Shown here piece by piece: positions 21,831 through 49,100 of a DNA stretch of 58,027 bases (its first letter is position 1; each line of letters begins with the position of its first letter). The stretch comes from a virus (taxonomy: Duplodnaviria > Caudoviricetes), in the IMG/VR virus record IMGVR_UViG_3300033168_000202, positions 1-58,027 of that record; one strand, 5' to 3'. A program made the translations under genes and the position numbers. The notes under the pieces were generated by a model. It saw only the letters and a program-made list of their open reading frames with translations, was not told the DNA's origin and searched no databases.

Positions 21831-21884
21831 GTAAGACCCCCACAACCGACATGCCAGCCCCCGCCGCGTCGTTCTGGTGACGCT
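21831..21884 (+). promoter_or_regulatory. Late promoter A
   Basis: GTAAGAC at 21831, GACGCT at 21879, in-frame GTG at 21891. Confidence 0.75.
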
Positions 21885-21890
21885 CGACGG

Positions 21891-22100
21891 GTGGCGCACA
21901 TGGCGGACGTGACCCTGCACGCCCAGGCATACCAGGACCTGCTCGACAGCCTCCGCGAAGCGTCCGACAAGCTCGCCACAGTCGACGCCGCCGCGCAGGC
22001 CATGTCCGACGTCCCCGTGTCTCACAGTCCGCCGCGGATGGCTGTCGACCGCGCACTGTGGATCGCCCGCCGCGCCGGTGGCATCCGGGTCGAACCATGA
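21891..22100 (+). CDS. Hypothetical protein, leaderless from promoter A
   Basis: GTG 6 nt after -10; coupled via 22097-22186 mini-ORF to terL nuclease gene. Confidence 0.6.
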   Translation: MAHMADVTLHAQAYQDLLDSLREASDKLATVDAAAQAMSDVPVSHSPPRMAVDRALWIARRAGGIRVEP

Positions 22101-22182
22101 CCCGCCGCTGCGACCATGGCGACGCCCAGCCCGTCGGTGACCAGACGATGGTCTGCCCCGACTGTGGCGAGCGGTGGCGCCG

Positions 22183-23115
22183 ATGACCAAGGCGCCGGCA
22201 CGTTCCCACGTGAACACGAGAAATTCGCTCTGGTCTAGTCGCTGGCCGGCGATCGCCCACCGCGTCCTACCTGACGGCCGGACGTGCATCGAGACGGTGG
22301 AGTCCGCCCCGCCCACCGAGCAGGCCGACACCAAGATGCGTCTCCCATGCGGGACATGCCCCAAGAACACCGCCTGCCTCAACGCCCGCGCGAAGGAACT
22401 CGGCACCCTGCTCTACGGCCGGGAGCTGCTCACCATGCCCCGCACCTCCGAATCGTCCCTGTTCCCCGCCGAACTGTTCGCCCCCCTGCTCGACCCGGAA
22501 GCGACCTGCGTCCCCTACTACCTGAAGCCGTTCCTGGACGAGCATCACTACGCCGTCGCCACAGCCTGGGACCTGGCGTTCTCGGAGAAGACCGGCGGCG
22601 ACTGGCTCGCCAAAGTCACCGGCATCATCGACCGGCGGACCGGGCTGCGGCAGGTCATCGACGTGTGCCGCTGGCAGCAGATCAGCTTCGACGACCAGAT
22701 CGCCCTCATCCAAGCCGAGCACGCCCTGTTCCGCGACGACATGGTCATCATCGAGTCCGACGCTGCCCAGCAGGTCTGGACACAGCACCTACGGGCCAAC
22801 AGCCCCGTCCCCGTCGTCGAGCATTCCGCCCGGGGGAAGAAGGACTTCGCCTCCGGGGTGCCCGGGCTGCTGGTCCAGCTCGAGCAGGGGATGTGGCGGT
22901 TCCCCTACCAGCGGGGGTCGCATCACCATGAGCATGTCCGCGAGCTGCTGAACGAGGCTGAAGCGTTCGGCTGGGTCGACGGCAAGCTGATGGGCGTCGG
23001 CGAGCACGACGATTGCGTTATGGCGCTTTGGCACTGCTCCTGGGGCTTGGAGCGCCTTTCTAGTGTGCCAATGCGCTCATCCAGACGCGGCGTTGTACCC
23101 GGGGCGAGACAGTAA
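22183..23115 (+). CDS. terL: Terminase large subunit, nuclease domain only
   Basis: LWSSRWP linker motif, AWDLA, IIESDAAQ, EHDDCVMALW RNase H-like acidic motifs. Confidence 0.88.
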   Translation: MTKAPARSHVNTRNSLWSSRWPAIAHRVLPDGRTCIETVESAPPTEQADTKMRLPCGTCPKNTACLNARAKELGTLLYGRELLTMPRTSESSLFPAELFAPLLDPEATCVPYYLKPFLDEHHYAVATAWDLAFSEKTGGDWLAKVTGIIDRRTGLRQVIDVCRWQQISFDDQIALIQAEHALFRDDMVIIESDAAQQVWTQHLRANSPVPVVEHSARGKKDFASGVPGLLVQLEQGMWRFPYQRGSHHHEHVRELLNEAEAFGWVDGKLMGVGEHDDCVMALWHCSWGLERLSSVPMRSSRRGVVPGARQ

Positions 23116-24259: not shown

Positions 24260-24449
24260 TCCGCCTGCTGCTTCGCAGCGCCGCCGTCCGCGGCGCCCAC
24301 ATGCTCGTTACCGACGACGAACTGCTCCGCTTCCGGGCATGGACGCTGCGGACCGCCGCCGCTCAGGCGCTCACCCGGGCGCACGCCGCCGGCTACCGGG
24401 CGGGCTACCGCGCCGGCGTCGACGCCGCACTCGACCGGAAGGCTCCCTG

Positions 24450-26183
24450 ATGCCGCTGATGCCCGTCCTCGTCGACGGGAAGATCAGACTCCAGAACCTG
24501 CCCCTCGACTCCGGTGCCTACGAGCAGCAGTGCGTCACCGAAGAGTCCCGCCGCACCCGTGACGTGTACCTGCGCCGTCTCTACTTCGCCGGCCAGCAGT
24601 ACGAACGCCGCAACTGGGAGGCGTTCCGCGCGCTCAACCTCAACCAGGACTGGCAGACCCTCCCCGAACATGACCGGCTCCACGCCTACGCCACACAGAT
24701 CAGCGAATGCGTCGAGTTCATCACCGACCAGCTCGCCGAAGGGTTCAACGTCACCGCCACCGACCCGACCGTCGGGGAGGTACTCGCCGGGGTGATCGCC
24801 GCGACCGACACCCTGTCGGGGGACGCGTTCGACGACATGGACGGCCCCGACGCCTCCGATGAGGCCGCTGCGGGCGATGGGGAGGACACGACCGATCCGA
24901 ACATCACCATCGACGAGGTGCTGCGGGACAGCCTGATCGCCGGGGACGTCGCCGCCGAAGTCCTGTGGGACCCGATCGAAGGGACCTGCTACCTGGAGTT
25001 CTGGGAGTCGGAGAAGGTCGAGGTCCGGTTCGCGTCACGTACCCGCGTCGAGGCGGTGATCCGTGAGGAGCTCCGCTGGGTTGTTGACGAACGCTCCGTT
25101 GATTCCAGCCGCAAGCAGGTCGTCGAACGGGTCGTGTACACCGTCGAGGTTCATCCCGACCACGGCCATCCCGAGTGCTGCAAGCAGACGTACTGGGACA
25201 CGGAGGAGGCGCCGGTCCGGGTCGAGTGGCTCGGCTTCCCGGTGCTGCCGTGGGCGCTGCTGCGGGCCGACTCGCGCCGGCTGCGCGGTACCCGCGGTGA
25301 AAGCCTGATCACGATGCAGGCGATGGAGACGGCGATGCGTTACGACGCTGTCGAGCAGCTGTCGTGGCTGATCGCCCGGTACAACTCGCACGGCAACCTG
25401 GCTGTCGTCGGGGACCAGGCGATGCTGAAGGTCGAGAACGACCCGCGAGTAGCGAAGGACGTCGCCGATGTGCTGACGTTCCCCGGCGGCACGAACCTGA
25501 CGTCGATCCAGCTCCCGACCGACCCGCGGATGATCGAGCACCAGAAGGAGGTGCTGGCCGCGCACCTCTACGCCATCTTCGGGTTGGTGCAGCTCGACAC
25601 CGCCAGCCTGCACGGCATGGGCCGCATCTCCGGCTACGCGCTTGAAATCCTCAACCGGAAGACTTCGGGCACGTTCCGGCGCATCCGCCGCAACTTCATC
25701 TCCGACATCCGGGCCCTGTTCAACCTCACCCTGGACGTCACCGCCTACCGGCAGGGCGCCGCAGCCCCCGGCTTCGACACCCCGCTCGAGGAACTCACCG
25801 GCGTCGACCTCATCTCCGACGAGGTGCTGCTCCCCGAAGGGGCGGTGCCGGACGTGCCGTTCTGGGACATTGACCCGGGGGAGGTGTTCCCCGACCGGCG
25901 GATGCAGATCGAGATGGGCACCGGCTACATCGTCGACGATGTGCTGCTCCGCGACGACTGGGTGGCGCGGGTCATCTCCCGTGAGGAGGTGCTCCGTAAG
26001 CGGGGCTACACGAAGGCGCAGATCGCTCAGATCATCGGCGAGTTGGAGAAGACGCCGGGCGGGATGGTGAGCGAGGATGCGGTGTTCGGCGCGAACACGG
26101 TAAGCCTGCCGACGCCCGCGCACACGCAGGGGACGCAGGCTGGCTCTACGGTGGGTTCGACGATCACGAAGGCCGACAGGTAG
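24450..26183 (+). CDS. Portal protein
   Basis: 577 aa, after terL and before MuF; ISGYALEIL SPP1-like motif. Confidence 0.8.
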   Translation: MPLMPVLVDGKIRLQNLPLDSGAYEQQCVTEESRRTRDVYLRRLYFAGQQYERRNWEAFRALNLNQDWQTLPEHDRLHAYATQISECVEFITDQLAEGFNVTATDPTVGEVLAGVIAATDTLSGDAFDDMDGPDASDEAAAGDGEDTTDPNITIDEVLRDSLIAGDVAAEVLWDPIEGTCYLEFWESEKVEVRFASRTRVEAVIREELRWVVDERSVDSSRKQVVERVVYTVEVHPDHGHPECCKQTYWDTEEAPVRVEWLGFPVLPWALLRADSRRLRGTRGESLITMQAMETAMRYDAVEQLSWLIARYNSHGNLAVVGDQAMLKVENDPRVAKDVADVLTFPGGTNLTSIQLPTDPRMIEHQKEVLAAHLYAIFGLVQLDTASLHGMGRISGYALEILNRKTSGTFRRIRRNFISDIRALFNLTLDVTAYRQGAAAPGFDTPLEELTGVDLISDEVLLPEGAVPDVPFWDIDPGEVFPDRRMQIEMGTGYIVDDVLLRDDWVARVISREEVLRKRGYTKAQIAQIIGELEKTPGGMVSEDAVFGANTVSLPTPAHTQGTQAGSTVGSTITKADR

Positions 26184-26192
26184 GAGAGGCTC

Positions 26193-26687: not shown

Positions 26688-26793
26688 TGGGCGGGCGTCC
26701 TAATCCGGGCACTAAGGCCGATCGCCGGCTGAAGGAGAACAAGCCGCGGCCGGTCAAGGCGACCCCGCCGCCGAAGCCGCGCACCAAAGGCCG

Positions 26794-27510: not shown

Positions 27511-28031
27511 TCTTCAAGCAGTGGGTGTCGGTCATCGACGAACGCACCACCGACAACTGCCTCGACGCTGACGGCCAGGTCCAGCCCGTAGACCGGCCGT
27601 TCGACTGCCTCTACGGTTCCTTCGATGAGCCTCCCGCGCATTCCGGCTGCCGAGCTCAAGTCGTGGAATGGCTCGAGGACATGCCGACCGGGCCGACGGG
27701 CGACAACCCGGGTGCGGCCAACCCGACCTACCCGGATGAGATTCCCCCACCTGCTGTGCCGCTGCCTGACGCCCCGCGAGTGATCCCGCTGCCCCGGTTC
27801 GAGGTCGTCGCGGCGCCGGTCCTCGCGGGCCTGTCACCGGCACGCAGGCTGCTGGTGGCGCAGCGGGTCGACTCGGCGCAGGGCGACTTCGGCGCACTGC
27901 CGGTGTGGCTGCAACGGGCGATCATCGCCGCCGAGCTGGCACTGGCTGAACGGCAGGCGCGGGACGCGCGGCGGCGCCGGTCGTACGCGCTGCCCGTATC
28001 GGCAGGAGCAAGCCGCAGGGGCGAGAACTAG
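27507..28031 (+). CDS. MuF-like minor head protein domain
   Basis: KQWVSVIDERTTDNC..DGQ..PPAHSGCR. Confidence 0.85.
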   Translation: MIFKQWVSVIDERTTDNCLDADGQVQPVDRPFDCLYGSFDEPPAHSGCRAQVVEWLEDMPTGPTGDNPGAANPTYPDEIPPPAVPLPDAPRVIPLPRFEVVAAPVLAGLSPARRLLVAQRVDSAQGDFGALPVWLQRAIIAAELALAERQARDARRRRSYALPVSAGASRRGEN

Positions 28032-28594
28032 TCCGACCCGTAGGCGAAGCGCGTCGAGTTCGGCGCCGGTGCGCTGACGATCGGCACGAGCCGCGCCTCG
28101 GACCGCACGGTCACGACCGCTGCCGCCCCGAGACGGATCTCTGTCTCGGGCCCGCTCAGTTCCCAGCACAATCCGTCCGGGATCGGGACGGAGAAGAACC
28201 GCTCGCGTTCCGCCTGCCCCACGTCGACCAGCTTGTCCATCGCCGCGGCTATCTGATCCGGCCGATCGGGCTGGCCGGCCCCGGTCGCGCCGGCCAGCCC
28301 GGCAGCGGCCCACGGCTGCGGAAGCGTGCCATCACCCACCCGGAGCGTGTCGGGCGGACTGAGCAGCAGCACTGGGCTCACGTGCAGTGCCCGGGCGAGG
28401 GCGCACAAGTCCTCCACCGTGATGCGACGCTCGCCTCTTTCGAGCCGTGACAGTCCCGTGTTCCCGATGGGGGTGCCCTGCTCGGCGAGACGCTCGGCGT
28501 GCTGCTGCTGGTTAAGGCCGCGTTCCTTGCGCCAGTGGCGTACGCGCTCGGCTACGGCGACTGAGGGACTCCCGCCGGCTTCAGTTTGCGCCAC
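28028..28594 (-). CDS. XRE HTH regulator inserted in head module
   Basis: VRHWRKERGLNQQQ..LSRLERGERRITVEDLCALARAL; GACAAT-N6-GTG leaderless start. Confidence 0.85.
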   Translation of the reverse strand: MAQTEAGGSPSVAVAERVRHWRKERGLNQQQHAERLAEQGTPIGNTGLSRLERGERRITVEDLCALARALHVSPVLLLSPPDTLRVGDGTLPQPWAAAGLAGATGAGQPDRPDQIAAAMDKLVDVGQAERERFFSVPIPDGLCWELSGPETEIRLGAAAVVTVRSEARLVPIVSAPAPNSTRFAYGSD

Positions 28595-28618
28595 GGCGCG
28601 ATTGTCCCACGAGCCCAG

Positions 28619-28672
28619 GTAAGACGGCCAGCGGCCACGCACGGCCTGTATCACGCGGCTTCCGGTGATCGT
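28619..28672 (+). promoter_or_regulatory. Late promoter B
   Basis: GTAAGAC at 28619, GATCGT at 28667. Confidence 0.75.
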
Positions 28673-28738
28673 AAACCTCGACGGACCAGCGACCGGACGC
28701 ACCAACACGGGGCGGACGGCAGACCGCGAGGACGACAC

Positions 28739-29542
28739 ATGGCAACCAGCACGGACGACACCTCAACCGGCAGCACCGGGACCAGCACCACCGGGACCGC
28801 GGACAGTGGCGGCAGCCTCCTCGAAGCCGACGCCGACAACCTCGACGACGCCAGCAGCAGCAGCGACGACGCGGACGCCGGCAAAGGTGAGGGGAACGGC
28901 CCGCAGGTCGACGTGGACAAACTCACCGCCGACGTCGAGGCCCGCCTCGACAAGCGCCTCGAGTCCCTGTTCGACCGGCGGATCAACGCCGTCCTGAAGG
29001 AGATTCGCAAGGGCCAGCCCGCCGCCGACAGCGGCAAGACTGACCAGGGCGACACCCCGAAGGGCAGCGCGCCAGCCGTCGACCCGAACCTGCCACGAGC
29101 TGCACGCCTCGCCTACCGCGAGTACGTGGGCGACGAGGTCCGCTTCATCTCCACCGAGGAGCGGGCACACGCCACCGAACTCGCCAACGCCCTCATCGGC
29201 GACATGGCGCGGCGCGGACAGCTCGATGACGAGGACCAGGCCGGACGTCAGGTAGCCCAGCAGGTAGCGAAGCAGATCAAGGGGTTGCGGGCGCACTACG
29301 AGGCCCGTACGACGGCGGCGCTGCGCAAGCGGGGTCTGCTGCGTGAGGACAGCCGTCCAGGCCAGCCAATACCGGGAGGTTCCGGGACTGGTGGGGTCAC
29401 CGCGCAGACGTCGTACGAGCGCGGCGCCCAGCTCGCCCGGGACCGTGCCGCTGCCCGCACCCCGGCCAGGACGGCACCCGCCGCACCGTTCGACCAGGCC
29501 GCCGGGCAGCGAATCCTCAACGCCCAACGCACCAACGCCTAG
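28739..29542 (+). CDS. Capsid scaffolding protein
   Basis: Acidic disordered N-term, coiled coil, position before capsid genes. Confidence 0.75.
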   Translation: MATSTDDTSTGSTGTSTTGTADSGGSLLEADADNLDDASSSSDDADAGKGEGNGPQVDVDKLTADVEARLDKRLESLFDRRINAVLKEIRKGQPAADSGKTDQGDTPKGSAPAVDPNLPRAARLAYREYVGDEVRFISTEERAHATELANALIGDMARRGQLDDEDQAGRQVAQQVAKQIKGLRAHYEARTTAALRKRGLLREDSRPGQPIPGGSGTGGVTAQTSYERGAQLARDRAAARTPARTAPAAPFDQAAGQRILNAQRTNA

Positions 29543-30078: not shown

Positions 30079-31197
30079 ATGGCGCTCTACGAGCTCGACG
30101 AGTTCCAGGGACCACAGTTCCTCGGCTTCGTCCGCAACCTCCCGACCCCCTACCCGTTCCTCGGCGAGACGTGGCTGCCGAACCAGCCGACGTTCGACCT
30201 GTCCTTCGACTACATCCTCGGCGCCTACAACCGGCCGGTTATGGCGACAGTCATGGGCTGGGACGCCGAGGCACCGATCGCCGGCCGCATCCCGTTCGGC
30301 CCGAAGGTCACCGGCGAGCTGCCTCCGGTCAAGCGGAAGTCGCGCATCTCCGAGAAGGAGATCATCCGGTTCTTGACGCCGCGGGCCGGCATCCCCGACC
30401 TGCAGAACGCGATCAACTCGGTGTACGACCTGTCGGCCCAGCTGGTCGAGTCGGTCCAGGCCCGGGTCGAGTGGCTGCGGATGCAGGCACTGTCGGAGCT
30501 GACGATGGTCGTCAACGAGGGCGGCGCCGTCTTCAACTTCGACTTCGGCAAGACCCCCGGCCTGTTCTACGACCTGGTCGCAGGCGTCGACGGCGCCGGC
30601 GTGCCGATCACGAACGCGACGACGGTCGGCGGCGCTGCCGGTGGCCCGCTCGACGGTTCGGGTGGCGCCGCGAACCCGGCGACGCCGGTCCAGTTCCTGC
30701 AGTCGATCTCCAACCGGATGCAGTTCACCTACGGCTTCCGGCCGGTGGAGCTGGTCGCCTCCCGCAAGGTGCTGTTCATGCTGCTCAACGACCCGTCCAT
30801 CCGCCAGCTCATCCGCGGCAGCAACGCCCCGGCGGCGATCCTCGCCCGCGCCGAACTCGACACCCTGTTCGCCCTCTACGACCTGCCGCAGCTCACCGTC
30901 TACGACGCGTCAGCCAACCAGGAGAACGCCGACGGCAGCCTCAGCCAGATCAGGATGATGGCCGAGAACAAGTGCTTCCTGCTGCCCCCGGCTGAGATCG
31001 AGCTGGGGCAGACGCTGTGGGGACCGACAGCCGAGTCGCGGGTGCTGCTCGGCACCGGCCTGGCGGGGCAGGCACCGGGGGTGTTCGCGTCGACCTATGT
31101 GACGACCGATCCGCCGTCGGAGTGGGTGAAGGCGGCAGCGACCGCGTTCCCGACACTGCCAGGGGCGAACCTGCTCGCCTCCGCGAAGCTTTATTAG
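30079..31197 (+). CDS. Major capsid protein (lambda gpE-like)
   Basis: 372 aa; WDAEAPI, RVEWLRMQAL, DFG motifs. Confidence 0.88.
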   Translation: MALYELDEFQGPQFLGFVRNLPTPYPFLGETWLPNQPTFDLSFDYILGAYNRPVMATVMGWDAEAPIAGRIPFGPKVTGELPPVKRKSRISEKEIIRFLTPRAGIPDLQNAINSVYDLSAQLVESVQARVEWLRMQALSELTMVVNEGGAVFNFDFGKTPGLFYDLVAGVDGAGVPITNATTVGGAAGGPLDGSGGAANPATPVQFLQSISNRMQFTYGFRPVELVASRKVLFMLLNDPSIRQLIRGSNAPAAILARAELDTLFALYDLPQLTVYDASANQENADGSLSQIRMMAENKCFLLPPAEIELGQTLWGPTAESRVLLGTGLAGQAPGVFASTYVTTDPPSEWVKAAATAFPTLPGANLLASAKLY

Positions 31198-32692: not shown

Positions 32693-33168
32693 TGCCTCCG
32701 TACCGCCCGCTCGAGCAGCGGTTCTGGGAGAAGGTCAGCAAATCCGACGACGGATGCTGGCTCTGGACCGGTTCGCACTCCGACTTCGGCCACGGAACGA
32801 TCAACGCTGGCCGGTCAGTCAAGATGCTTCGCGCCCACCGGGTCTCCTGGGAACTTCACCACGGCGCTGTCCCTGACGGGCTGTGCGTTCTTCATCGATG
32901 CGACGTGCCTGGCTGCGTGCGCCCGGAGCACCTGTTCCTAGGGACCAAGCGCGATAACACGGCCGACATGTGGGCGAAGGGTAGGCACGTCGCCCCCCCG
33001 CTGAAGCGCGGCGAGGACGGCGCGCGCACCAAGTTGTCGGCGCAGCACGTACTTGAGATTCGTGCGGCCCGAGGATTAGAGAGCAACGCAGCACTGGCGA
33101 GGCGGTACGGAGTAGCCGACTGCACGATTAGTGCAATACATAGGCGGAGACTGTGGGCGCACCTATGA
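32692..33168 (+). CDS. HNH endonuclease
   Basis: RFWEKV, CWLW, LHRCDVPGCVRPEHLFLGT, C-terminal HTH. Confidence 0.93.
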   Translation: MPPYRPLEQRFWEKVSKSDDGCWLWTGSHSDFGHGTINAGRSVKMLRAHRVSWELHHGAVPDGLCVLHRCDVPGCVRPEHLFLGTKRDNTADMWAKGRHVAPPLKRGEDGARTKLSAQHVLEIRAARGLESNAALARRYGVADCTISAIHRRRLWAHL

Positions 33169-34319: not shown

Positions 34320-34609
34320 GCCGTCCCAACCCTGCGCAGCGGGAAGCGTGCGACCAGATCGGTCGGCTGCTGCAGGAACTAGCCGGGCAGCTCGGACCCC
34401 GAGAAAGCGACCCCGACGACTACGGCGCTGACCTTGACGTCGAGGAGATGGCCCGCCTCGCAGCGGTGACTAACCCGGCGCTGACCGAATGGGTCGTCCT
34501 CATGCAGTGGGTCGACATGGACTCAGGCGAGGCGTTCCAGACCCGGGTCAACCTGCCCGAGATGCTGACGACCCACATCCAGGGCCTGCTCATGTCGTGG
34601 GTCGACTGA
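34316..34609 (+). CDS. Hypothetical protein
   Basis: Coupled overlaps. Confidence 0.6.
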   Translation: MSRPNPAQREACDQIGRLLQELAGQLGPRESDPDDYGADLDVEEMARLAAVTNPALTEWVVLMQWVDMDSGEAFQTRVNLPEMLTTHIQGLLMSWVD

Positions 34610-34812
34610 TGACCGCCTCGACGGACCTGCGGTGCCCGATCGGCGGGCTGCTCGCGAAAGTCACCGGCCACCGGCCGCTGCACATCACCGACGGCAACCT
34701 GATCGAACTGGCGTGCCGCGATTGCCGGCGCAAGCTCGGCGCCCGGCAGGTACTCCACCGGTTCAATGTGGCGGGCCAGCTTGTCGAGTCCGTCGTCCTC
34801 CACGACGAGTAA
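34609..34812 (+). CDS. Com-like zinc-ribbon protein
   Basis: DLRCPIGGLLAK..IELACRDC. Confidence 0.65.
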   Translation: MTASTDLRCPIGGLLAKVTGHRPLHITDGNLIELACRDCRRKLGARQVLHRFNVAGQLVESVVLHDE

Positions 34813-34862
34813 GACCCCCCGCCCTGCCGCCCCCGGCCGCCGCGGGCCCCGCAGGCGACGCT
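34809..34862 (+). promoter_or_regulatory. Late promoter C
   Basis: GTAAGAC at 34809, GACGCT at 34857. Confidence 0.75.
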
Positions 34863-34937
34863 CGACCGTAGACCGGCCCCGATCGGCACCCCACCCGCAG
34901 AGCCCACCAGGGCTTCACCGGAAAGCAGGGCAGCCGC

Positions 34938-36109: not shown

Positions 36110-36447
36110 TCTCAGCCGCCTACGGATGGACCGATGAGGTGATCCTCAACTTGACGCTCGCCCGCATCAAGCAGGTCCGGGACATCGTCAGCCGCCGGCA
36201 GGCCGAGGAGTTCGACCGGCATCTGCAGGTCGAGGAAGTCAAGCTCCGGCATCTCGTCGGCGCTGTGTATGCCGCGGCGGGTAACGAGCAGGCCGGTGAG
36301 GCGGCCGATGCGGTGCGGCTCCGTGGGGAGCGGTCGTCGGAGTCGCGGGCGAAGCAGGTCGGGAAGCTGGTTGAGGGTGAGAAGGCGCCGGACTGGCTGC
36401 CGTCCGCCGGGCCGTTCGAGCAGGCCGTCGCCGGGTCCGTCCGGTGA
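36001..36447 (+). other. -1 programmed frameshift (G GGA AAA, 36001-36007) and extended chaperone frame
   Basis: -1 frame open to 36447 with YGWTDEVILNLTLARI motif. Confidence 0.85.
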
Positions 36448-39400: not shown

Positions 39401-41021
39401 GGGCATCGTCATGGGACCGCTGGGGCTGATCCTCGGCTTCGTCATCAAGCACTGGGATGACATCAAGCGGATCGTCGGCGACGCTATCGCCTGGGTCGGT
39501 AACAAACTGCAGCAGGGCTGGGACGCGATCAAGAACGCGGTGAGCGCCGCCTGGAATGCTGTCGGGGACTTTATCCGCGGCGCGTGGGACAAGATCAAGC
39601 AGATTGTGTCCGACGCGCTCAATGCGGTGGGGAACTTTCTCAGCACACGGCTGGACAACATAAAGCAGAACTTCAGCAACGCCTGGGACGGTTTCCGTAA
39701 CATTGTCAGCGACGTGTGGAACGCGATCACCGGCGCCGTCAGTGGCGCCGTAAACTCGGTGATCGGGTTTATCGACAATGTGATCGGCAAGATTCAGGGG
39801 GCCATCAACTGGGTGGGGAACCTCGCCAGCAAGATCGGTAGCCTGCCCGGCAAGGCACTCTCGTTCATTGGCCTCGCCGCCGGCGGACCCGTGCCCGGCT
39901 CGGGCGTCGGGGACACCACGCCGGCCATGCTTACCCCCGGCGAGCATGTCCTGACCACCTCCGACGTACACAACCTCGGCGGCCATGCGGGGGTGATGGC
40001 GCTGCGGACCGCCGTGTCCGGTGGGGCCGCAGCCCACGGCGACGGCCGGGGTGGGTTCGCGACCGGTGGCACGCTGGGGGGGATCAACAGCCAGATCGGG
40101 TCGGTACTGGCGCAGATCAAGATCGCCGAGCTACGTGGCGGGGTGACCGACCGGCTACGCGCCGAGCTGTCGGCGTTGCTGGCCGAGCGGAACACGGTGA
40201 GCGGCAGCGGCCACGCAGGGCGCCACAGCACCGGGCATCACCGTGTGGCCGGTGCGGCCCACCACCCGGCCCACCACCCGGCCCACCACCCGGGCCACCA
40301 CCCGGCCGCACACCACCCTGGGACGGCTACACACCACCGGGGAACCGCAGCCCATCACAAGGCGGTCGCAGCCCACCACAAGGCCGTCACGGGCCATCTG
40401 CGGGCCATCCGCACCCACACGAGCACGACCGCGAAGCACACCGGCAAGACGGGAGCGAACCCGGCGCTGCTCGGCTACCTCGAGGCGACCGCGCAGGCCA
40501 ACATGCGCCAGCTCGGCTACGCCGGCTACGCCGACGCGCAGCGCGGCCTCGGGCTGAAGGTCACCGGGTCGGACAACTCGGCGACGTGGCAGGCACTCAA
40601 GCGCGCCGCGTCCGGCCAGGGAGCCGGCGGCAGCGGCGGCGGCGGTAGCAGTTCGGGGATGTCAACGACGGACAACCTGCTGACCCGGATCGCGACCTAC
40701 TGCCAGGCGATCGTCACCGCCATGCACATGCACGGCGCCGCACAGAACCTGCTAGCCGGCACCACCCCCCTCGGCGGGCAGACCATCGGCTCCGGCGGTG
40801 GGATCGCCAACTACGGGGTGCAGGCCCTCGGCGTGTCGCCGTGGATGGGCGGCTCCGGGCTCGCCGCGTTCGCCCACTCCGGGACCACCATCACCGGGCC
40901 CGTCACATCCACCATCAACGTCACGACCAACGTCAACAACCCGGTGCCGCAGACCGCTGCGGAGACGAACGCGGCGACGATGCAGCGCATCGCAGCCCTC
41001 GGCCTGATCCCCGGAGCCTGA
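36444..41021 (+). CDS. Tape measure protein
   Basis: 1525 aa, Ala/Gly-rich, 11-aa Trp/Phe periodicity, GGPVPGSG..AMLTPGEHV motif. Confidence 0.95.
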   Translation: MTTPGIGTGGTAGAAVFTAAANFAPLIAESRGAAESLTGLRGGLRETSVALDQTEKAATTVGRTMAGLRTATAETAAGNSRLATSSLEVAGALDKVAAAAAKYGDALALIRRAQSEAGAGTDRLVSQNAQLDRSLSAIGKSGVAARDGLVQVEGSANSAREAMAVVGAQADRTAAQLRAVGTAAAEESRGVAAMGAGNQAAQRELAATGAASTTMGRDVAAGSAVAGSGVRTTGAAAAEAESKATSLGSKFSQVGKGMSDTGGMLISKVQNPLLATGAAAYVTIKAYSSYQTALTQLGTEAGMTQGEIKQVGDQFLTMGSQTGQSADVLAKSFFSIQSAMGATLDPATRVQTEMDVLSAAAKGAAIDNSSMADTTNALVGVMTSNLIPGANNAGDAMSKMIAVVGTGNAHLIDFVHALKSGLTPEMATLGVSFADAGAIMARWADLGTPMEMTGNRLKTMVGQLVKPSKEGAAALNGIGMSGTQLAEDIHSHGLLFALQDLRTNLDKTFPTGSGHAISFAEQQKALTDFDQALKDTNVTGQAAADSRKKFVAELDKSGSAAVMREQALLAIGGKSRGGAFLVGTVNQLDAEQTKADLINKSGPQVLDEAMAKRAQDVGQKFKDAKAEMHNAAIVIGADLAPAFTKLAAILDKTAQFLSRHPALVKALAYALGATLVAAVVGGALGAFLKFGAGIFKVGELAGKTIGTIGRLAARMAGLSRLKNGIGLLEETGKVSKGQSAFDRAMAETGGVSKKEVQVSEKGAGAVEGKLARLGRLVARPFKAVWNFASSGASAVEGAVVKLAKLVARPFIAVYRMLMAGADAVASGIARLGGLAAKGGRAVFRASLTGAEAVGSGLKRIGSAALDAGKAGAKAALDLGKLAAGGIAAGIGKLGTAFMAFGRSAVGAIRAVGAAMLANPWILVLMAVIAVIILVITHWKQFKEAVVAVWHFLLDAAKTVWKAITDAVSAAVSWVVDFVKKHWDLLLGIVMGPLGLILGFVIKHWDDIKRIVGDAIAWVGNKLQQGWDAIKNAVSAAWNAVGDFIRGAWDKIKQIVSDALNAVGNFLSTRLDNIKQNFSNAWDGFRNIVSDVWNAITGAVSGAVNSVIGFIDNVIGKIQGAINWVGNLASKIGSLPGKALSFIGLAAGGPVPGSGVGDTTPAMLTPGEHVLTTSDVHNLGGHAGVMALRTAVSGGAAAHGDGRGGFATGGTLGGINSQIGSVLAQIKIAELRGGVTDRLRAELSALLAERNTVSGSGHAGRHSTGHHRVAGAAHHPAHHPAHHPGHHPAAHHPGTATHHRGTAAHHKAVAAHHKAVTGHLRAIRTHTSTTAKHTGKTGANPALLGYLEATAQANMRQLGYAGYADAQRGLGLKVTGSDNSATWQALKRAASGQGAGGSGGGGSSSGMSTTDNLLTRIATYCQAIVTAMHMHGAAQNLLAGTTPLGGQTIGSGGGIANYGVQALGVSPWMGGSGLAAFAHSGTTITGPVTSTINVTTNVNNPVPQTAAETNAATMQRIAALGLIPGA

Positions 41022-41022: not shown

Positions 41023-41880
41023 ATGGCAGCACCCACCGTCACCACCGACGAGCTGTTCACCGCCGACGGGGTCGCGCTCAACACCTACGCCTGGAATGTG
41101 ACCAACCGGGGCGGGCGCTGGTCGCTACCCGCCATCCGAACCGGCAACAACAAGTCCGGCGGCAGGCACGGCTACATCTGGACCGCCCGCAAGGTCCACG
41201 ACGCCGGGGCGATCGTCCTGTCGATGTGGGTGCAGGGCTCCAACCCCGACGGCAGCATGCCCGCCGACCTGAACATGCGCCGCCAGGTGAGGGCCAACGC
41301 CGACGCCCTCGCCCGCACCTTCGCGAAGCGGTACAGCCTGATCCACCTGGTGCAGACCGAGGCGGACGGGTCGCAGCGGGAGTGCTACGCCGAAGTCATC
41401 GCCGGGGTCAACTTCACGACGATGGGGCTGGGCGCACGGGCCGAGTTCGCCGTCGAGCTGGTCATCCCCGCCGTGTTCTGGCAGGACGTGGCGCAGGTGA
41501 CCGAATCGTTCCCGGTGCCGGCGTCGGGGACGATCCTCACCCTCGACGCGTTCGCCGCTGCGACGGCACCGCTCGAGGACTTGCTGTTCACGCTGAACGG
41601 GCCGGGGGCGTCGCCTCAGCTGACCGACCCAGCGTCGGGGGCGACGGTGCAGTACGGCGGCACGCTGGCCGCGGGGCAGGCGTGGACTGTCGACTCCGGG
41701 TCGTGGCTGTCGTCGGTGTCCGGGTCGAACGTGATCGGCCAGACAGTGCATTCGGGGGCGGACAGGTTGCTGCCGCTCGCACCGCAGGTCGGTGGCCCCC
41801 AGGTGCAGGTGTCGGGCTCGGGTTTCACGGGGGCGACGTCGCTGACTGTCGCGGGGCGCCGCAAGTACTACGGGGCCTGA
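41023..41880 (+). CDS. Distal tail (baseplate hub) protein
   Basis: Immediately after tape measure; size and beta-rich content. Confidence 0.75.
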   Translation: MAAPTVTTDELFTADGVALNTYAWNVTNRGGRWSLPAIRTGNNKSGGRHGYIWTARKVHDAGAIVLSMWVQGSNPDGSMPADLNMRRQVRANADALARTFAKRYSLIHLVQTEADGSQRECYAEVIAGVNFTTMGLGARAEFAVELVIPAVFWQDVAQVTESFPVPASGTILTLDAFAAATAPLEDLLFTLNGPGASPQLTDPASGATVQYGGTLAAGQAWTVDSGSWLSSVSGSNVIGQTVHSGADRLLPLAPQVGGPQVQVSGSGFTGATSLTVAGRRKYYGA

Positions 41881-41881
41881 G

Positions 41882-41935
41882 GTAAGACGCCTCGCCGTTG
41901 GCATGGCTGCCCGGCAGGCTTCGGCTTCCTAGCGT
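41882..41935 (+). promoter_or_regulatory. Late promoter D
   Basis: GTAAGAC at 41882, TAGCGT at 41930. Confidence 0.75.
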
Positions 41936-41965
41936 TCTCGCTGACGCCCAAGCGAGGAGAACGCC

Positions 41966-42196
41966 ATGGCAGCCCCCCCGATCCAGGTCCCCGACGGCAA
42001 GCACGTCGTCATCACCGGGCCGGTGTCCGGCAGCGTCGAGGTCGACGGCCGGTCCTACGACGTGAGTCCGCCGCACGTCTTCGTCGACAGCCATGAGGAA
42101 GCCCTCGCCGTCGCCGCTGCCACCTCCGACCTGCACCGCGACCAGTTCCCCGGCCACTACGCCGCCCCTGCCGCCGACCAGCCTGCGGAGGTCTGA
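41966..42196 (+). CDS. Small hypothetical tail-region protein
   Basis: GAGGAG RBS. Confidence 0.7.
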   Translation: MAAPPIQVPDGKHVVITGPVSGSVEVDGRSYDVSPPHVFVDSHEEALAVAAATSDLHRDQFPGHYAAPAADQPAEV

Positions 42197-42831: not shown

Positions 42832-42836
42832 GTCCG

Positions 42837-43283: not shown

Positions 43284-43289
43284 AGAAGC

Positions 43290-44330: not shown

Positions 44331-44369
44331 CCCGGCGTCGAGTTCGAGGAGTAGGACGGGAGAGACGGC

Positions 44370-44882
44370 GTGCCCTTCGGCCCGAACCTGCTGTCCAACC
44401 CAGGTGCCGAGGTCGACGTCTCGGGTTGGACCAGCACCAACTGCACCATCGCTCGGGTCACCACCCCGGTCCACTCCGGCGTGGGGGCGTTCCGGCTCAC
44501 GGCAACAGCCGCAGGTGACATCCACTTGACGTCTGCCGTGAACATCCGTGTGACACCGGGCCAGGCCGTGCAGATCTCGGCATGGGCGCGCACAGCCGCA
44601 ACCGCCCGTTACTGGCAGATACAGATCGACTGGTACGACGCCGCTGTGACGACTTACCTGTCAACGTCGGGCGGCGGCGGTCCCGGCGAGTCGACCGCCT
44701 ACCAGCAGGCCACCGGCATCTACACCGCGCCAGCCAGGGCGGGGGTCGGCATCTTTGGCGTCGTGTGGACCTCAACCGTAGTTGGTGAGATTCACTACAC
44801 CGACGATGTTTTTCTGGGTGTGCAAGTAGCCCCGACCGTCTACGCGTCGCCGGTGCCTGTCCTGACGGCGGCGACTCGGTGA
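44370..44882 (+). CDS. Carbohydrate-binding (CBM4/9-like) domain protein
   Basis: NLLSNPGAEVDVSGW..HSG..YTDDV. Confidence 0.78.
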   Translation: MPFGPNLLSNPGAEVDVSGWTSTNCTIARVTTPVHSGVGAFRLTATAAGDIHLTSAVNIRVTPGQAVQISAWARTAATARYWQIQIDWYDAAVTTYLSTSGGGGPGESTAYQQATGIYTAPARAGVGIFGVVWTSTVVGEIHYTDDVFLGVQVAPTVYASPVPVLTAATR

Positions 44883-47800
44883 GCCGGTTCGGTCGGTCCT
44901 TCCCGATCCAGCCCCGGCTGGTCCGCACCCTCGCCGCACCCGTCGTCGCGGCGACGATGGCTGCGGCCGCCGGCTTCGGTGGCACCCCGACGGCTACGCC
45001 TGCCGGTTCGGCGACGATGGCCGGAGCTGCCGGTTTCGGCGGGACCGGTTCCTACGCGGCTACGGCGGCCATGGGCGCGGTGGCCAGTTTCGGCGGGACT
45101 GCTGCTACGACGCCTACCGCGGCCGGGACAATGGCCGGAGCGGCGTCCTTCGGTGGTACTTCGACGGCCACCGCGACCGGCACTGGGGGCCTCACCGGAG
45201 TCGCCACCTTCGGCGGGGCAGGGTCGTATGCGGCTGCCGGAACGATGGCCGGCGTCGCGAGCTTCACGAGTACCACTCCGATCGCGGGCAGCAGCGGGCA
45301 GATGGGGGCTGTCGGCACGTTCGGCGGCACGCCGTCGCCGGGCGCCCCCGTGTCGATGGCTGGGGTTGCCAGCTTCGGCGGGGCGGGGTCCTACGCCGTG
45401 TCGGCGACGATGGCCGGCGCTGGCGGCTTCGGCGGGATCGCGACCCCTACGCCGACCGCAACGGCGACGATGGCCGGGGTCGCGTCGTTCACCGGAGCCG
45501 TCACCGGACCGCCCACGGCAGTCGCCACCATGGCCGCAGTCGCCTCGCTTGCTAGCACTCCCGGCGTGGGCGCGCCCGCCGCCATGGCAGGCGCCGGCGC
45601 GTTCGGTGCCCCGCAGCCCGGCGTCGGCTCACCTGCCACCCTGGCAGCGGTTGCGGGCTTCGGCGGCACAGGTGCGCTCAACCCGTCCGGCGCCGCCCTC
45701 ATGGCCGCCCAGGCAGCCCTGACCGTCACCGGGACACTCAACCCCTATGCGGGCAGCGGCCTGATCGCCACCGCCCAGTTCGGTGCCCTCACCCCCGCGC
45801 CGATGACCCCGCCGTTCGACCTGCAGCTCCGAGCCCTCGACGGCCCCGGCGGCGGCCCCGGGACGATCCTGCCCGACGCGCACATCGAGTTCGTCGACAA
45901 CTTCTGCGACGTCGGCTCGATCAAGGTCGACTACCCCCGCACCGGCCTCAACGCCGGCTGGCTCGTCGACCAGGCCGGTTTCTGCCTGTTCTCCCAAGGC
46001 GCCGAACTACCCAACAGCCGCTGGTACGTCGAGGACGGCACCGGCGACGACGCCCAAGACGACCTCGGCGGCGGCGGGGCCGACAGCTATGCTGGGCAGA
46101 ACCTCGTCGGCCTGTTCTCCCAGGGAATCGTCTACCCGGCTGGTTGGCCGTCGGTTACGAACCCGAGCTCGCACAGCTTCACCGGCGCCACCATCGGCAC
46201 GATCATGCGGACACTCGTGCAGCGGGCGCAGGCCCGCGGTGCGCTGACCGGCATCACCGTCTCATCCTTCACCGACACCGCCGACTCGAACGGCCAGCCG
46301 TGGGCCTTCGGCATGACCGTCACCTACGACGCGGGCACGAACCTGCTGCAGGTGCTGCAGAACGCCTACGCGCAGGGCGTCGTCGAGTTCCAGACCGTGG
46401 GCCGCAGCCTGCGGATGTACAACCCCGGCACCCTGTCCACGGACCGGACGACCGGGGCGCAACCGGCGATCCTGCGCCGCGGCCGGGACGTCACCGGCGC
46501 CGGCCGGCAACGCTCGTCCCGGTCGATGATGACAACGGTCCTCATCGAAGGTGACCAGACGTCGATGGTCGAGATCGTCGACCCGAAAGCCTCGGGGCCG
46601 CTCGGCCGCCGCGAGGGTTACGTCGCCCAGTCGGGTGTGACCGACACGGGGACGCTGCGGGTCATCGGCCAGTCGACGTTGGGGCAGAAGAACGGGCCCC
46701 GGACGCAGCGCACCTTCGGCCTCGACCTGTCCGCCGGCGGCCCACGCCCCTGGGTTGACTACCTCGTCGGCGACTACCTATGGGCTGACGTCGGCAACCA
46801 GCTGGAGAAGCTGCGGGTCGTGTCGCTCAACGCGACGAAAGACCCCGACGGGATGGTCATCGCCACCGTCGTCCTCAACGACCGGTTCCTCGAGCTTGAT
46901 GTGCTGCTGGCCCGGCGGGTGTCGGGCATCTCGGGTGGCAGTTCGGGGATCGCGAGTGTGGCGCCGCTGAACAGCACCACCCCGGACCGCCTCGCCCCCG
47001 CGGTCCCTGCCGGTTTGGGGGCGACGTCGACGGCGTTCGTGTCCCCCGATGGGATCACCCAGGCCCAGCTGACCGCGTCGTGGGCGGCGGTGACGACGAA
47101 CGCGGACGGCACGGCCTGCACCGACCTGGATCACTACGAGGTGCAGGCGACGGTCGGCGGGCAGGTGCTGAACCTGGGCAGCACCACGACGGCCACCCTG
47201 TCGTACTCGCCGGTCCGGCCGGGGCTGAATGTGGCGGTCCGGGTCCGGGCGGTGGACCAGAACGGCAACCGGTCCCCGTTCTGCTCGGACTACACGCTGA
47301 CCGCCGGGTCGGACGTGACCCCGCCCCCCGTCCCGTCAACACCCACGGTGGTGGCGATGCTGGGGGCGCTGCGGGCGGTCTGGGACGGCCACGGGTCGGC
47401 GGGTGAGGTTCAGCCGGGCGACTTCGACCGGGTCGAGGTCCACGCCTCGACGGTGGTTGGGTTCACCCCGTCGGCCGCGACTTTGCAGGACACGATCCGT
47501 TCGCCTTATGGCGGTACGAGTGTGCTGCTGCTGCCGTTCGTGCAGTTCTATGTCCGGCTGGTGGCCTTCGACCATTCGGGGAACGCATCAGCGCCGTCAG
47601 CGGCTGCGCCGGGGACACCACGGCAGGCCCGTGGCGGCAACACGAGCCTGTCGGCCGGGAGTTCGGCGGGGGCGATGTCGATCTCGACGGGGCTGTCGAT
47701 CCCCGGCGGGACGGCGATCACAGTCTCGGCCGGTACGGCAAGCGCGGAGACGGCAACCACGTCGGGGACGCCGACCGGTACCGGCCCGTTCACGGTCACG

Positions 47801-48871
47801 CTGACCGGGCCGCTGGTCCGGGCGCATGCGCAGGGCGACACGGTCAGCCTCGGCGACCTGGGGACGCTGTCAATCACCGACGCTGAGATTCAGACCCTCA
47901 ACGCCACGAAGATCACCACCGGCATCCTGTCGGCTGACCTGGTCGTCGGCGGCCGGATCAAGACGTCCGACACCGGCGCTCGCGTCGAGATCAACAACGC
48001 CGGGCTGTCGGCTTACGGCATCGACGGGACGACGCGGACAGCGTTCCTGTCCGACGCCGACGGTAGCCTGACGATCAATAAAGGCACCATCACCGGCGCC
48101 ATGATTCAGACCGCAGCCACAGGCCAGCGGATGGTCCTTACCGGAACTGGTGGCAGTTTCGCGGCAACAGCAGCCTACTTATATACAGGTCTGGCCGGTG
48201 AGAACGCGTCGGGTGTAATGGGAGTGCGGCTCGTGCCGGGCTTCAACACCAAGACGCTCGACTTGATCCCACCTGAGTTTGGGCTTTCCGACGGGTCACA
48301 CTCGACGAGCCTTAGCTTGGCAGGCCGTACGTCACCATCAAGCGGCACAGACGCCATCGTTTCAGTCTTTTCGGACCGTTTCCACGCGCAGTCGCCCGAT
48401 GGCACCTGGAACATGGACGCGTACGGTTCAAACTGGGTTATCTCATCCGGTATTGGCGCCACAGCGGCCAGCATTGTCGGCACTCCAGGCAGCGGCGTCA
48501 ACTCAATCAAGATCGGCGCCCCGACTCTCATGTGGGTAAGCGACGGGGCATCCGGATACCGCCCGGTTTACGCATCTGCCTACAATGTCGCCTCGGCACG
48601 CGCACTGAAGACTGACGTGGTCGAACTCTTGGGCGCCCTTGATGAACTCCGACGCCTGCGGCCCGTTGAGTACAGGAATGCCGATAAGGCGGACATTGAG
48701 TGGCATGACGGCCTGCACCGTTCCCTCATCGCAGAAGATGTGGCCGCCGTCATCCCGCATGCATCTCCACCTTCCGCTCAGGGAGAGCCCAGCGGTGGCC
48801 TGTCCCTGATGACGCTGCTCGCCACCACGATCGCCGCCGTCCAGGAACTCGACCGGAAGGTCCACGGATGA
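44879..48871 (+). CDS. Large tail tip/fibre protein with Fn3 domains and C-terminal S74 intramolecular chaperone
   Basis: MAG.ASFGG repeats, central tail domain, VRVRAVDQNGNRS Fn3 motifs, SARALKTDV..LRPVEY. Confidence 0.88.
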   Translation: MSRFGRSFPIQPRLVRTLAAPVVAATMAAAAGFGGTPTATPAGSATMAGAAGFGGTGSYAATAAMGAVASFGGTAATTPTAAGTMAGAASFGGTSTATATGTGGLTGVATFGGAGSYAAAGTMAGVASFTSTTPIAGSSGQMGAVGTFGGTPSPGAPVSMAGVASFGGAGSYAVSATMAGAGGFGGIATPTPTATATMAGVASFTGAVTGPPTAVATMAAVASLASTPGVGAPAAMAGAGAFGAPQPGVGSPATLAAVAGFGGTGALNPSGAALMAAQAALTVTGTLNPYAGSGLIATAQFGALTPAPMTPPFDLQLRALDGPGGGPGTILPDAHIEFVDNFCDVGSIKVDYPRTGLNAGWLVDQAGFCLFSQGAELPNSRWYVEDGTGDDAQDDLGGGGADSYAGQNLVGLFSQGIVYPAGWPSVTNPSSHSFTGATIGTIMRTLVQRAQARGALTGITVSSFTDTADSNGQPWAFGMTVTYDAGTNLLQVLQNAYAQGVVEFQTVGRSLRMYNPGTLSTDRTTGAQPAILRRGRDVTGAGRQRSSRSMMTTVLIEGDQTSMVEIVDPKASGPLGRREGYVAQSGVTDTGTLRVIGQSTLGQKNGPRTQRTFGLDLSAGGPRPWVDYLVGDYLWADVGNQLEKLRVVSLNATKDPDGMVIATVVLNDRFLELDVLLARRVSGISGGSSGIASVAPLNSTTPDRLAPAVPAGLGATSTAFVSPDGITQAQLTASWAAVTTNADGTACTDLDHYEVQATVGGQVLNLGSTTTATLSYSPVRPGLNVAVRVRAVDQNGNRSPFCSDYTLTAGSDVTPPPVPSTPTVVAMLGALRAVWDGHGSAGEVQPGDFDRVEVHASTVVGFTPSAATLQDTIRSPYGGTSVLLLPFVQFYVRLVAFDHSGNASAPSAAAPGTPRQARGGNTSLSAGSSAGAMSISTGLSIPGGTAITVSAGTASAETATTSGTPTGTGPFTVTLTGPLVRAHAQGDTVSLGDLGTLSITDAEIQTLNATKITTGILSADLVVGGRIKTSDTGARVEINNAGLSAYGIDGTTRTAFLSDADGSLTINKGTITGAMIQTAATGQRMVLTGTGGSFAATAAYLYTGLAGENASGVMGVRLVPGFNTKTLDLIPPEFGLSDGSHSTSLSLAGRTSPSSGTDAIVSVFSDRFHAQSPDGTWNMDAYGSNWVISSGIGATAASIVGTPGSGVNSIKIGAPTLMWVSDGASGYRPVYASAYNVASARALKTDVVELLGALDELRRLRPVEYRNADKADIEWHDGLHRSLIAEDVAAVIPHASPPSAQGEPSGGLSLMTLLATTIAAVQELDRKVHG

Positions 48872-49050
48872 GCGACACGAGTGCCCCGACCGGCCAGGAG
48901 CAGATGGACGCTGTGCTCGCTGAACTCCACGACCAGGCGAGCCGCAGCGCCATGCTCCGCGCCCAGCTCACCGCCGCCTTGCGTGACCGCGACACCGAGA
49001 AACGCCGCGCCGACGACCTCCAAGCCGAGCTCGACACCCGCGCCACGTAA
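48868..49050 (+). CDS. Small coiled-coil protein
   Basis: ATGA overlap. Confidence 0.6.
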   Translation: MSDTSAPTGQEQMDAVLAELHDQASRSAMLRAQLTAALRDRDTEKRRADDLQAELDTRAT

Positions 49051-49100
49051 GACCCCCACCCGGCCGCCGGGCCACCCACTGTCCGGTCTGTCGCGACCGT
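49047..49100 (+). promoter_or_regulatory. Late promoter E (lysis cassette)
   Basis: GTAAGAC at 49047, GACCGT at 49095. Confidence 0.75.

Follow-up and report, generated by a model that had tools for sequence, protein, structure and literature searches.

The window considered here (the whole of an IMG/VR provirus record, 58,027 bp, about 69% G+C) carries the heptamer GTAAGAC five times on its plus strand and once on its minus strand, at position 54967. Each of the five plus strand copies, hereafter boxes A to E, opens one module of late genes, the gene context of A and B being less certain than that of the other three:

21831..21837, plus strand: box A, GTAAGAC, upstream of the open reading frame (ORF) 21891-22100, the nuclease half of the large terminase gene (terL) and the portal gene
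28619..28625, plus strand: box B, upstream of a scaffold-like gene (28739-29542), a decoration-like gene and the major capsid gene
34809..34815, plus strand: box C, whose own TAA is the stop codon of ORF 34609-34812, upstream of the major tail gene (34938-35525)
41882..41888, plus strand: box D, one base past the TGA of the minor tail gene (41023-41880), upstream of 41966-42196 and of fibre-like genes
49047..49053, plus strand: box E, whose own TAA is the stop codon of ORF 48868-49050, upstream of the lysis region (endolysin-like gene, 50115-50912)

Three of the sites (C, D and E) clearly fall between genes, and around A and B no plus strand gene could be called with confidence. The boxes are spaced nearly evenly, at intervals of 6788, 6190, 7073 and 7165 bp. 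Box B is found near the uncertain 5' end of a minus strand gene of the Cro/C1 helix-turn-helix (HTH) type (28028-28654), which is located between the MuF-like and scaffold-like genes and oriented opposite to the structural operon; as this 5' end may overlap the box, site B could be part of a divergent control region.

A second element accompanies the box at all five sites, in the form of a hexamer beginning 48 nt past the first base of the box:

21879..21884, plus strand: hexamer A, GACGCT after GGT, with GTG 21891 6 nt further on and a predicted leaderless start at 21891
28667..28672, plus strand: hexamer B, GATCGT after GGT, predicted start point at about 28679-28680
34857..34862, plus strand: hexamer C, GACGCT after GGC, predicted start point at about 34869-34870
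41930..41935, plus strand: hexamer D, TAGCGT, the sole canonical TANNNT of the five, predicted start point at about 41942-41943
49095..49100, plus strand: hexamer E, GACCGT after CGC, with ATG 49108 7 nt further on
49108..49146, plus strand: a 12-codon mini-ORF, which would be leaderless and whose TAG abuts the GTG (49147) of the next gene

In the interval from each box to the start codon that follows it, the hexamer at +48 is the sole match to [GT]ANNNT, barring one extra match at +55 in C, and the A at position 2 and the T at position 6 of a -10 element are present in 5/5 cases. No -35 shared by the five sites was found, no canonical -35/-10 promoter was called on the plus strand of the late region of the window, and no plus strand terminator was called at the five sites. 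Besides the box itself, the columns that are invariant between -60 and +110 are +9 (C), +49 (A), +53 (T) and +72 (G). A pair of A/T columns, both invariant and no more than 5 nt apart, anywhere in this interval, was obtained in only one of 20,000 random five-site sets, and the pair formed by the +49 A and the +53 T is not a product of chance. The number of boxes is weak evidence alone, there being 16,384 possible 7-mers: shuffled windows hold on average 1.84 copies of GTAAGAC on both strands, six copies were reached in 1 of 100 shuffles, and one-mismatch variants of the box occur in the window at the chance level (70 found, 69.5 expected).

These results bear out what the first-pass annotation of this DNA had claimed for the window itself. 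Its five plus strand positions are all recovered, with no further plus strand copy; the TAA of the box doubles as the upstream stop at C and E; the same five hexamers stand exactly 48 bp after every box, followed at A and E by start codons 6-7 nt on (+6 for the GTG, +7 for the ATG); neither alignments nor promoter calling reveal a shared -35; and the fixed A and T are indeed non-random. As to its worry that GTAAGAC might turn up in many random copies, the count by itself says little.

No close relatives of the window were found by megablast of 15 kb against phage records or by locus searches with single proteins. The nearest cultured phages, judged by the major tail protein, are the Arthrobacter phages Kitkat, KellEzio, BeatusComedenti and DanielleIgnace (44-45% identity), and an alignment-based search supplied further loci from IMG/VR, metagenomes and bacterial genomes (given G or L numbers where they have to be told apart). 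The relatives that share the box layout, namely Arthrobacter Cluster AT phages, IMG/VR contigs and prophages of Actinosynnema (G006, on the contig of L088) and Actinomycetospora (G007, on the contig of L089), are only 40-55% identical in protein. In the window, G001, G003, G004 and Kitkat, GTAAGAC precedes the start codon of the major tail gene by 95-150 nt, and it is also found upstream of this gene in DanielleIgnace (two copies) and L131. The place of GTAAGAC is taken in G006 and G007 by GTGTGAC, which marks the boundaries ahead of the first late genes, the scaffold gene and the major tail gene as well as the one after the tail fibre genes; the metagenome lineages L139, L141 and L153 likewise have GTGTGAC upstream of the major tail gene, and the L140-146 group has GTATGAC. 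Boxes syntenic with B are present in Kitkat (11655), DanielleIgnace (10740, inverted), G001 (2299), G002 (28094), G006 (16209) and G007 (22312); boxes syntenic with C in G001, G003, G004, Kitkat, DanielleIgnace, L131, G006, G007, L139, L140, L141 and L153; and boxes syntenic with E, past the tail fibre genes, in G006 (32007) and G007 (43722). Information content drops to about zero outside the 7-mer (21 sites from seven genomes), the box being kept and its flanks not. By these comparisons the box is a feature of the family, with middle bases specific to the lineage, GT[AG][AT]GAC.

According to the GenBank annotation, 5/5 Kitkat copies and 6/6 plus strand DanielleIgnace copies lie between genes or on a last codon. 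Counted in the orientation of the phage, the copies are distributed over the strands as follows:

Window, whole record: GTAAGAC, 5 plus, 1 minus
Kitkat, whole record: GTAAGAC, 5 plus, 0 minus
G001, whole record: GTAAGAC, 6 plus, 0 minus
G002, whole record: GTAAGAC, 3 plus, 3 minus, an exception to the strand bias
G003, whole record: GTAAGAC, 1 plus, 0 minus
G004, whole record: GTAAGAC, 3 plus, 1 minus
DanielleIgnace, whole record: GTAAGAC, 6 plus, 2 minus
G006, 50-kb stretch: GTGTGAC, 6 plus, 0 minus
G007, 50-kb stretch: GTGTGAC, 6 plus, 1 minus
L229: box, 2 plus, 0 minus, at sites homologous to two DanielleIgnace sites

At the scaffold site of DanielleIgnace the box is inverted (GTCTTAC); it lies one base past the stop codon of gene product (gp) 14 and is followed by a hairpin and then by TGT-GATCCT at +57, and the syntenic Kitkat site consists of GTAAGAC, a hairpin and TGc-AATCCT at +57 (both offsets counted by hand), the Kitkat hexamer AATCCT occupying 11712-11717. 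As the inverted copy keeps its partner, the box is probably bound by a protein on double-stranded DNA. Inversion could not be tolerated by an RNA signal or by a core promoter element; a roughly two-fold symmetric protein on GT-N3-AC could bind either way.

To describe the partner across lineages, we pooled 49 plus strand lineage boxes from 16 genomes or contigs, near-duplicate contigs being excluded. Three groups of [GT]ANNNT offsets emerge, against about 0.6 hits per offset elsewhere: 1) +47/48, with nine sites (the five window sites, Kitkat 29120 with GACTTT at 29168-29173, DanielleIgnace 16050, G003 and L131); 2) +56-58, with 13 sites (Kitkat 11357, G004 333, L115, L131, two in G006, three in G007, L139, L141, L153 and L140); 3) a small group at +14-16 (nine hits, mostly canonical TANNNT). 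In none of 2,000 random sets of 49 positions did a 2-nt window hold more than 9 hits or a 3-nt window more than 12, compared with 11 and 13 observed; permuted 7-mers are unsuitable as a control, their copy numbers differing widely. The logo of the hexamers from 23 sites reads G21 A23 Y21 S21 N T23, or GAYSNT (A2 and T6 in the 23 aligned sites of the relatives being imposed by the search pattern), with a G two bases upstream in 12/23 and no -35-like element. No fixed partner was found within Kitkat alone or within DanielleIgnace alone.

At six sites of the window, G006 and G007, the start codon of an ORF lies 6-8 nt past the hexamer:

Window, site A: GTG at +6, 69 aa
Window, site E: ATG at +7, 12 aa
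G006 32007: ATG at +7, 104 aa
G007 43722: GTG at +8, 152 aa
G006 9458, with TACCAT at +34: ATG at +6, 179 aa, homologous to the window HTH protein 17305-17808
G007 10193, with TAGTGT at +26: ATG at +7, 73 aa

Leaderless transcripts of actinobacteria are known to have their start codon 6-8 nt past the -10, and it is by this geometry only that the hexamers are marked as putative -10 elements.

One gene of the window stands out as a possible source of a protein that binds the box:

18145..18549, plus strand: candidate box-binding regulator, 134 aa, ribbon-helix-helix (RHH)-like in its N-terminal part and with a Cys/His zinc ribbon in its C-terminal part, the gene preceding that of the terL ATPase

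When the proteins of the window were compared by phmmer with all ORFs of Kitkat, DanielleIgnace, G001 and G002, its product was the only non-structural protein, among those listed, common to Kitkat, DanielleIgnace and G001; the counterpart in both Kitkat and DanielleIgnace is gp3, encoded directly upstream of the terL ATPase gene. The profile of this protein also matches G002, G006 and G007, in all 7/7 long box-bearing records, and finds no full-length match in 5/5 relatives without a box before the major tail gene (20-kb loci; three of the five records have a completeness rating of 100%, and the hits in two were weak, partial and C-terminal). Direct observation extends to the cis architecture, to its conservation and to its joint occurrence with the RHH/zinc protein. 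The alignment features LN(F/V)RxDD...S.WAREAL in its N-terminal part and invariant C, H, P, C and (C) near the C-terminus, and a profile search of 1.84 billion representatives returned 97 relatives of about 95-125 aa. Pfam gives the protein no family. Against PDB sequences the profile matches RHH antitoxins best, if weakly (RelB, E 0.01; DinJ and VapB26, E 0.25-0.35). The AlphaFold2 model, with a mean predicted local distance difference test score of 86.7, comprises an extended segment (11-19), two helices (20-33 and 38-81) and a small C-terminal sheet; its top Foldseek matches are the RHH domains of ParD and PrpA (template modelling score by target 0.59-0.66, E 1.2-3.1) and the TFIIB zinc ribbon, which are concordant and, with all E >1, not significant. 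Atlas leads are RHH_1 and NikA-like clusters (0.85-0.86).

The arrangement in G002 is box-N7-TACGCT-N7-ATG, the ATG being that of the RHH/zinc gene, and G007 has box-N9-TAGCCT upstream of its RHH/zinc gene. As a box inside the core promoter of the regulator's own gene is a classic arrangement for self-repression, these two sites suggest that the RHH/zinc protein also represses its own gene. P0046 alone yielded no loci of the regulator family, and a search with alignment A6 added one new viral locus, L229. A bacterial locus, L231, was rejected as a family member, its gene being an unrelated RHH antitoxin-like one. Upstream of that gene, at 9864-9888 of L231 (Phycicoccus), two box variants form an imperfect inverted pair, GTAAGAC-GAAT-GTCATAC; this is one isolated case, which would fit GT-N3-AC as an RHH half-site.

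We propose that the five units are activator-dependent late promoters and that they represent a switch shared among phages, an interpretation to which we give a probability of roughly 0.6. Each unit would consist of the 7-bp box (GTAAGAC), a 41-bp free spacer and a -10-like GAYSNT without a -35. The hexamer would keep the A and the T needed by the sigma-A holoenzyme, and transcription is predicted to start 6-7 nt past it (at 21891, about 28679, about 34869, about 41942, and 49108), which would put the centre of the box at about -57. A phage protein bound to the double-stranded box would recruit or stabilise the host RNA polymerase at otherwise poor promoters, and the packaging/portal, capsid, tail, fibre and lysis modules would thereby each receive a boost of their own. 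Where transcription starts, that the box is bound and that the effect is one of activation are all predictions from sequence. The best candidate for the bound protein would be the RHH/zinc-ribbon product of 18145-18549, an identification that we hold with less confidence than the promoter and activator scheme as such.

The core idea of the first-pass annotation, an uncharacterised late-activation regulon with a site near -57, a -10-like hexamer and no -35, gains from the syntenic boxes at late-gene boundaries of distant relatives, the fixed distances at which the hexamer recurs, the start codons 6-8 nt past it and the candidate regulator that occurs together with the box; taken as a whole, the interpretation is supported in part. 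Its particulars had to be amended in five respects. The 48-bp spacing is not universal, the +56-58 class being commoner in relatives and the small +14-16 group existing besides; the box is not a single fixed sequence, as it varies by lineage between GTAAGAC, GTGTGAC and GTATGAC; the -10 is of the GAYSNT rather than the TANNNT kind; the site described as asymmetric is strand-biased in most records and inverted in one syntenic copy; and the spacer of the Arthrobacter phages is often taken up by a terminator hairpin.

A number of observations weigh against activator-dependent promoters, and it is because of the close boxes, the partnerless tail sites, the 9-bp gap, the lack of residue tracking and the repressor habit of RHH proteins that the probability is set no higher. 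Without the window sites, the +47/48 class holds 4/44 boxes and the +56-58 class 13/44; the pre-specified +48 rule is therefore matched outside the window by four boxes against an estimated 1.1 or so expected (P about 0.03), a modest excess, and the +57 class was found post hoc. No fewer than 27/49 boxes have no partner at either main distance, including L107, Kitkat 17017 and G006 21336, the latter two being major tail sites. Other boxes lie 27-44 nt upstream of a start codon, too close for a site at -57 (DanielleIgnace 61235, L229 8801, G001 44205 and G002 12149). The two spacing classes are 9 bp apart, which is not the helical turn of 10.5. The T at position 1 of TANNNT is missing, G taking its place in 4/5 window hexamers and 21/23 aligned sites. 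An unbiased scan of the window for k-mers in gaps did not rank GTAAGAC at the top, a scan that was not relied on given its rough gene calls, the position of A and B inside doubtful minus strand ORFs and the 16% of the window counted as gap. As regards the regulator, its assignment to the RHH class has weak backing (profile E about 0.01, Foldseek E >1), RHH proteins are mostly repressors, and no co-variation between regulator and box is seen, the predicted DNA-facing residues being M-N-R in Kitkat and G001 (GTAAGAC) and in G006 (GTGTGAC) alike. Lastly, three of the four strong plus strand terminator-like hairpins between 10 and 30 kb of Kitkat start 5-8 nt past a box (three of the four were identified by terminator calling and the one at 11357 by eye), which fits a role at the RNA level.

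Such a role is the alternative that survives best, unlikely as we consider it to be. The box would act in RNA as a processing, 3'-end or antitermination signal that ends the upstream message, recognised by an RNA-binding factor of host or phage, and the hexamers would be unrelated to it. At most sites the box does coincide with the upstream stop codon or stand no more than about 12 nt from it, its strand bias is strong, and terminator-like hairpins with T runs follow the boxes at Kitkat 11357, 11655 and 29120 and at DanielleIgnace 53927 and 15967. A hairpin with a T run after the box is nevertheless no general feature, being found at some sites of the Arthrobacter phages and called at 0/5 window sites, and if the spacer is free sequence that can be used to end the upstream message, the hairpins directly after the Kitkat boxes would be explained under the promoter scheme as well. 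Against an RNA signal, the inverted DanielleIgnace copy would read GUCUUAC in the transcript, the fixed distance to the hexamers and the start codons 6-8 nt beyond them have no explanation at the RNA level, RNA at the five window sites folds no better than shuffles (z -1.67 to +0.68), and no Rfam match at E<=1 was found in the whole window. The variation of the box between lineages would also be unexpected for a conserved host ribonuclease.

Slightly less probable again is that the box alone makes up the core promoter, as one short element similar to the T4 late promoter that would be read by a modified or alternative holoenzyme, with transcription starting about 6-8 nt further on. The sharp bounds of the 7-mer, the lack of a partner common to all sites, the boxes only 27-44 nt from a start codon, the several box-to-ATG stretches without any [GT]ANNNT and an enrichment of A at +11 (8/21 sites) are all compatible with such an element. 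A core element cannot function when inverted, however; Kitkat transcripts would start inside terminator hairpins, there would be no explanation for the leaderless geometry or for the hexamer peaks at +48 and +57, and annotation of the window with PHROGs and Pfam turned up neither a sigma-like gene nor one for RNA polymerase.

We regard as equally improbable a protein that binds the box to block or insulate read-through at the ends of modules, in the manner of a stoperator or roadblock, without activating the next promoter. The fold class of the candidate protein, made up mostly of repressors, the boxes directly after stop codons, the box inside the core promoter in G002 and G007, and the multi-copy, co-oriented and intergenic nature of the sites, which recalls the stoperators of mycobacteriophages, would all suit this function. 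A roadblock has no need of a fixed distance to the next -10, however, and the late region holds no other recognisable promoters. The box is moreover found in Cluster AT phages, which have no integrase and to which the logic of a lysogenic repressor does not apply; Galaxy is reported as the only integrase carrier among 46 phages in the study that describes them (PMC5513430). Finally, that the five copies and their partners are all coincidental is very improbable given the statistics of the A/T pair, the offset peaks and the syntenic conservation in more than 10 lineages, even though six copies can be reached by shuffling and one-mismatch variants are at chance.

The proposed promoters match no family among the P2 Ogr/P4 Delta, RinA/ArpU-type and stoperator systems. 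The late promoters of P2-like coliphages have a poor -35, a -10 of the sigma-70 type and a conserved activator site centred about 55 bp upstream, and a small phage zinc protein (Ogr of P2 or Delta of P4) activates all of them at once. They are probably the closest functional analogue, with several late operons, a conserved upstream site at a fixed distance and a poor -35 in common; the Ogr site, however, is a dyad (TGT-N12-ACA) as opposed to the GT-N3-AC box of 7 bp seen here, which is found at two spacings (-57 and -66), the candidate in our case has a putative RHH DNA-binding part and no Pfam family, and the hosts are high-G+C actinobacteria. RinA, ArpU and LtrC of phages of Gram-positive bacteria are small DNA-binding proteins encoded upstream of the terminase, which control packaging, morphogenesis and lysis. 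The gene 18145-18549 has the same position directly upstream of the terminase, but those systems are known to drive a single late promoter, compared with five internal ones here, and Pfam gives the candidate no family. In Cluster A (L5), stoperators of 13-14 bp occur in about 25-30 copies, at which the immunity repressor stops elongation in lysogens; they resemble the box in being multi-copy, asymmetric, co-oriented and located in short intergenic gaps, and differ from it in that the box has 5-6 copies, is also found in non-temperate phages and keeps a fixed distance to a -10. The middle promoters of T4 that depend on MotA likewise use a single asymmetric box in place of a -35 together with an ordinary -10, but the MotA box is centred at -30, which only the minor +14-16 class approaches. 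One RHH dimer reads 6-7 bp in the operators of omega (heptads) and NikR, and the NikR half-site GTATGA is close to GTATGAC; those are repressor operators with at least two adjacent or paired sites, whereas here single boxes lie far upstream of promoters.

The leader of the major tail gene holds a further conserved element. A hairpin of the form GACCC(C)-loop-(G)GGGTT(G/C)AC, located between a few bases and about 30 nt upstream of the ribosome-binding site of this gene, was detected by a regular expression in the window and 13/14 loci (L008-L011, L088, L089, L131, L134, L139-L141, L153 and L015), the variant in Kitkat being missed. In the window it is GAGCCC-ACCA-GGGCTT (34900..34915, plus strand), and the compensatory GAGCCC/GGGCT change occurs in both the window and L089; this hairpin may be an element of mRNA stability or translation. 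More distant relatives (L016-L091 and L145-L210; tail protein 38-44% identical) have CCGAT(A/T) instead of the GT-N3-AC box, frequently in the form GCCGATAG or CCGATTAGTCAC, about 60-90 nt upstream of the major tail start codon (by eye in about 27 of the 60 loci examined). This motif, which resembles the -10 of sigma-28/WhiG-type promoters, may be a different late signal at the same place.

The main genes of the window, from a rough map produced by a codon log-odds caller and annotated with PHROGs and Pfam, are:

1-1113, minus strand: integrase
About 3-17 kb: early genes
19414-20268: terL, ATPase half
22174-23115: terL, nuclease half
24450-26183: portal
28739-29542: scaffold-like gene
30079-31197: major capsid
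33165-34319: glycosyltransferase
34938-35525: major tail
36444-41021: tape measure
41023-41880: minor tail
44879-48871: fibre-like gene
50115-50912: endolysin-like gene

The large terminase is split into two genes, for the ATPase and the nuclease; the gap of about 1.9 kb that separates them holds small genes and box A. Kitkat (gp4, gp11) and DanielleIgnace (gp4, gp8) have the terminase split in this way too, and for Cluster AT the split is noted in PMC5513430. Two stretches left empty by the gene calls, 17808-18145 and 18549-18905, nevertheless read as coding, the second with a Cys/His-rich, HNH-like translation. Two full tyrosine integrase genes and an integrase-like fragment are present (1-1113, minus strand; 52825-53955, plus strand; 55346-56137, minus strand), and the right 5 kb of the window, which holds the lone minus strand GTAAGAC, may be a second element or host DNA.

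Among the matches listed in our literature searches, no published description of the box was found and nothing relevant on a late-promoter motif of actinobacteriophages; nor was anything found on an RHH activator at a bacteriophage late promoter. In PMC5513430, which assigns Kitkat and KellEzio to Cluster AT, neither "promoter" nor "motif" appears anywhere in the main text.

How late genes are activated is unknown for most actinobacteriophages, and the window offers a testable cis code composed of a box, a spacing rule, a hexamer and predicted starts, which applies, together with one candidate regulator, to the cultured Arthrobacter phages Kitkat, KellEzio and DanielleIgnace, for which a laboratory Arthrobacter strain serves as host. 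If the proposed scheme is true, an RHH protein would serve as a phage late activator, the specificity of a regulon would have changed between lineages, and compact inducible promoter-regulator pairs would be available for Streptomyces-like hosts. More tentatively, and with the odds rather against it, one could envisage a late-transcription code shared from lytic Cluster AT phages to prophages of Pseudonocardiales, in which a protein combining an RHH part with a TFIIB-like zinc ribbon would drive GAYSNT promoters that lack a -35 from single 7-bp boxes centred at -57 or -66, repress its own gene through a box within the core promoter of that gene and have its box specificity switched between lineages. 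GTAAGAC, GTGTGAC and GTATGAC would in that event define naturally orthogonal regulator-promoter pairs for high-G+C hosts.

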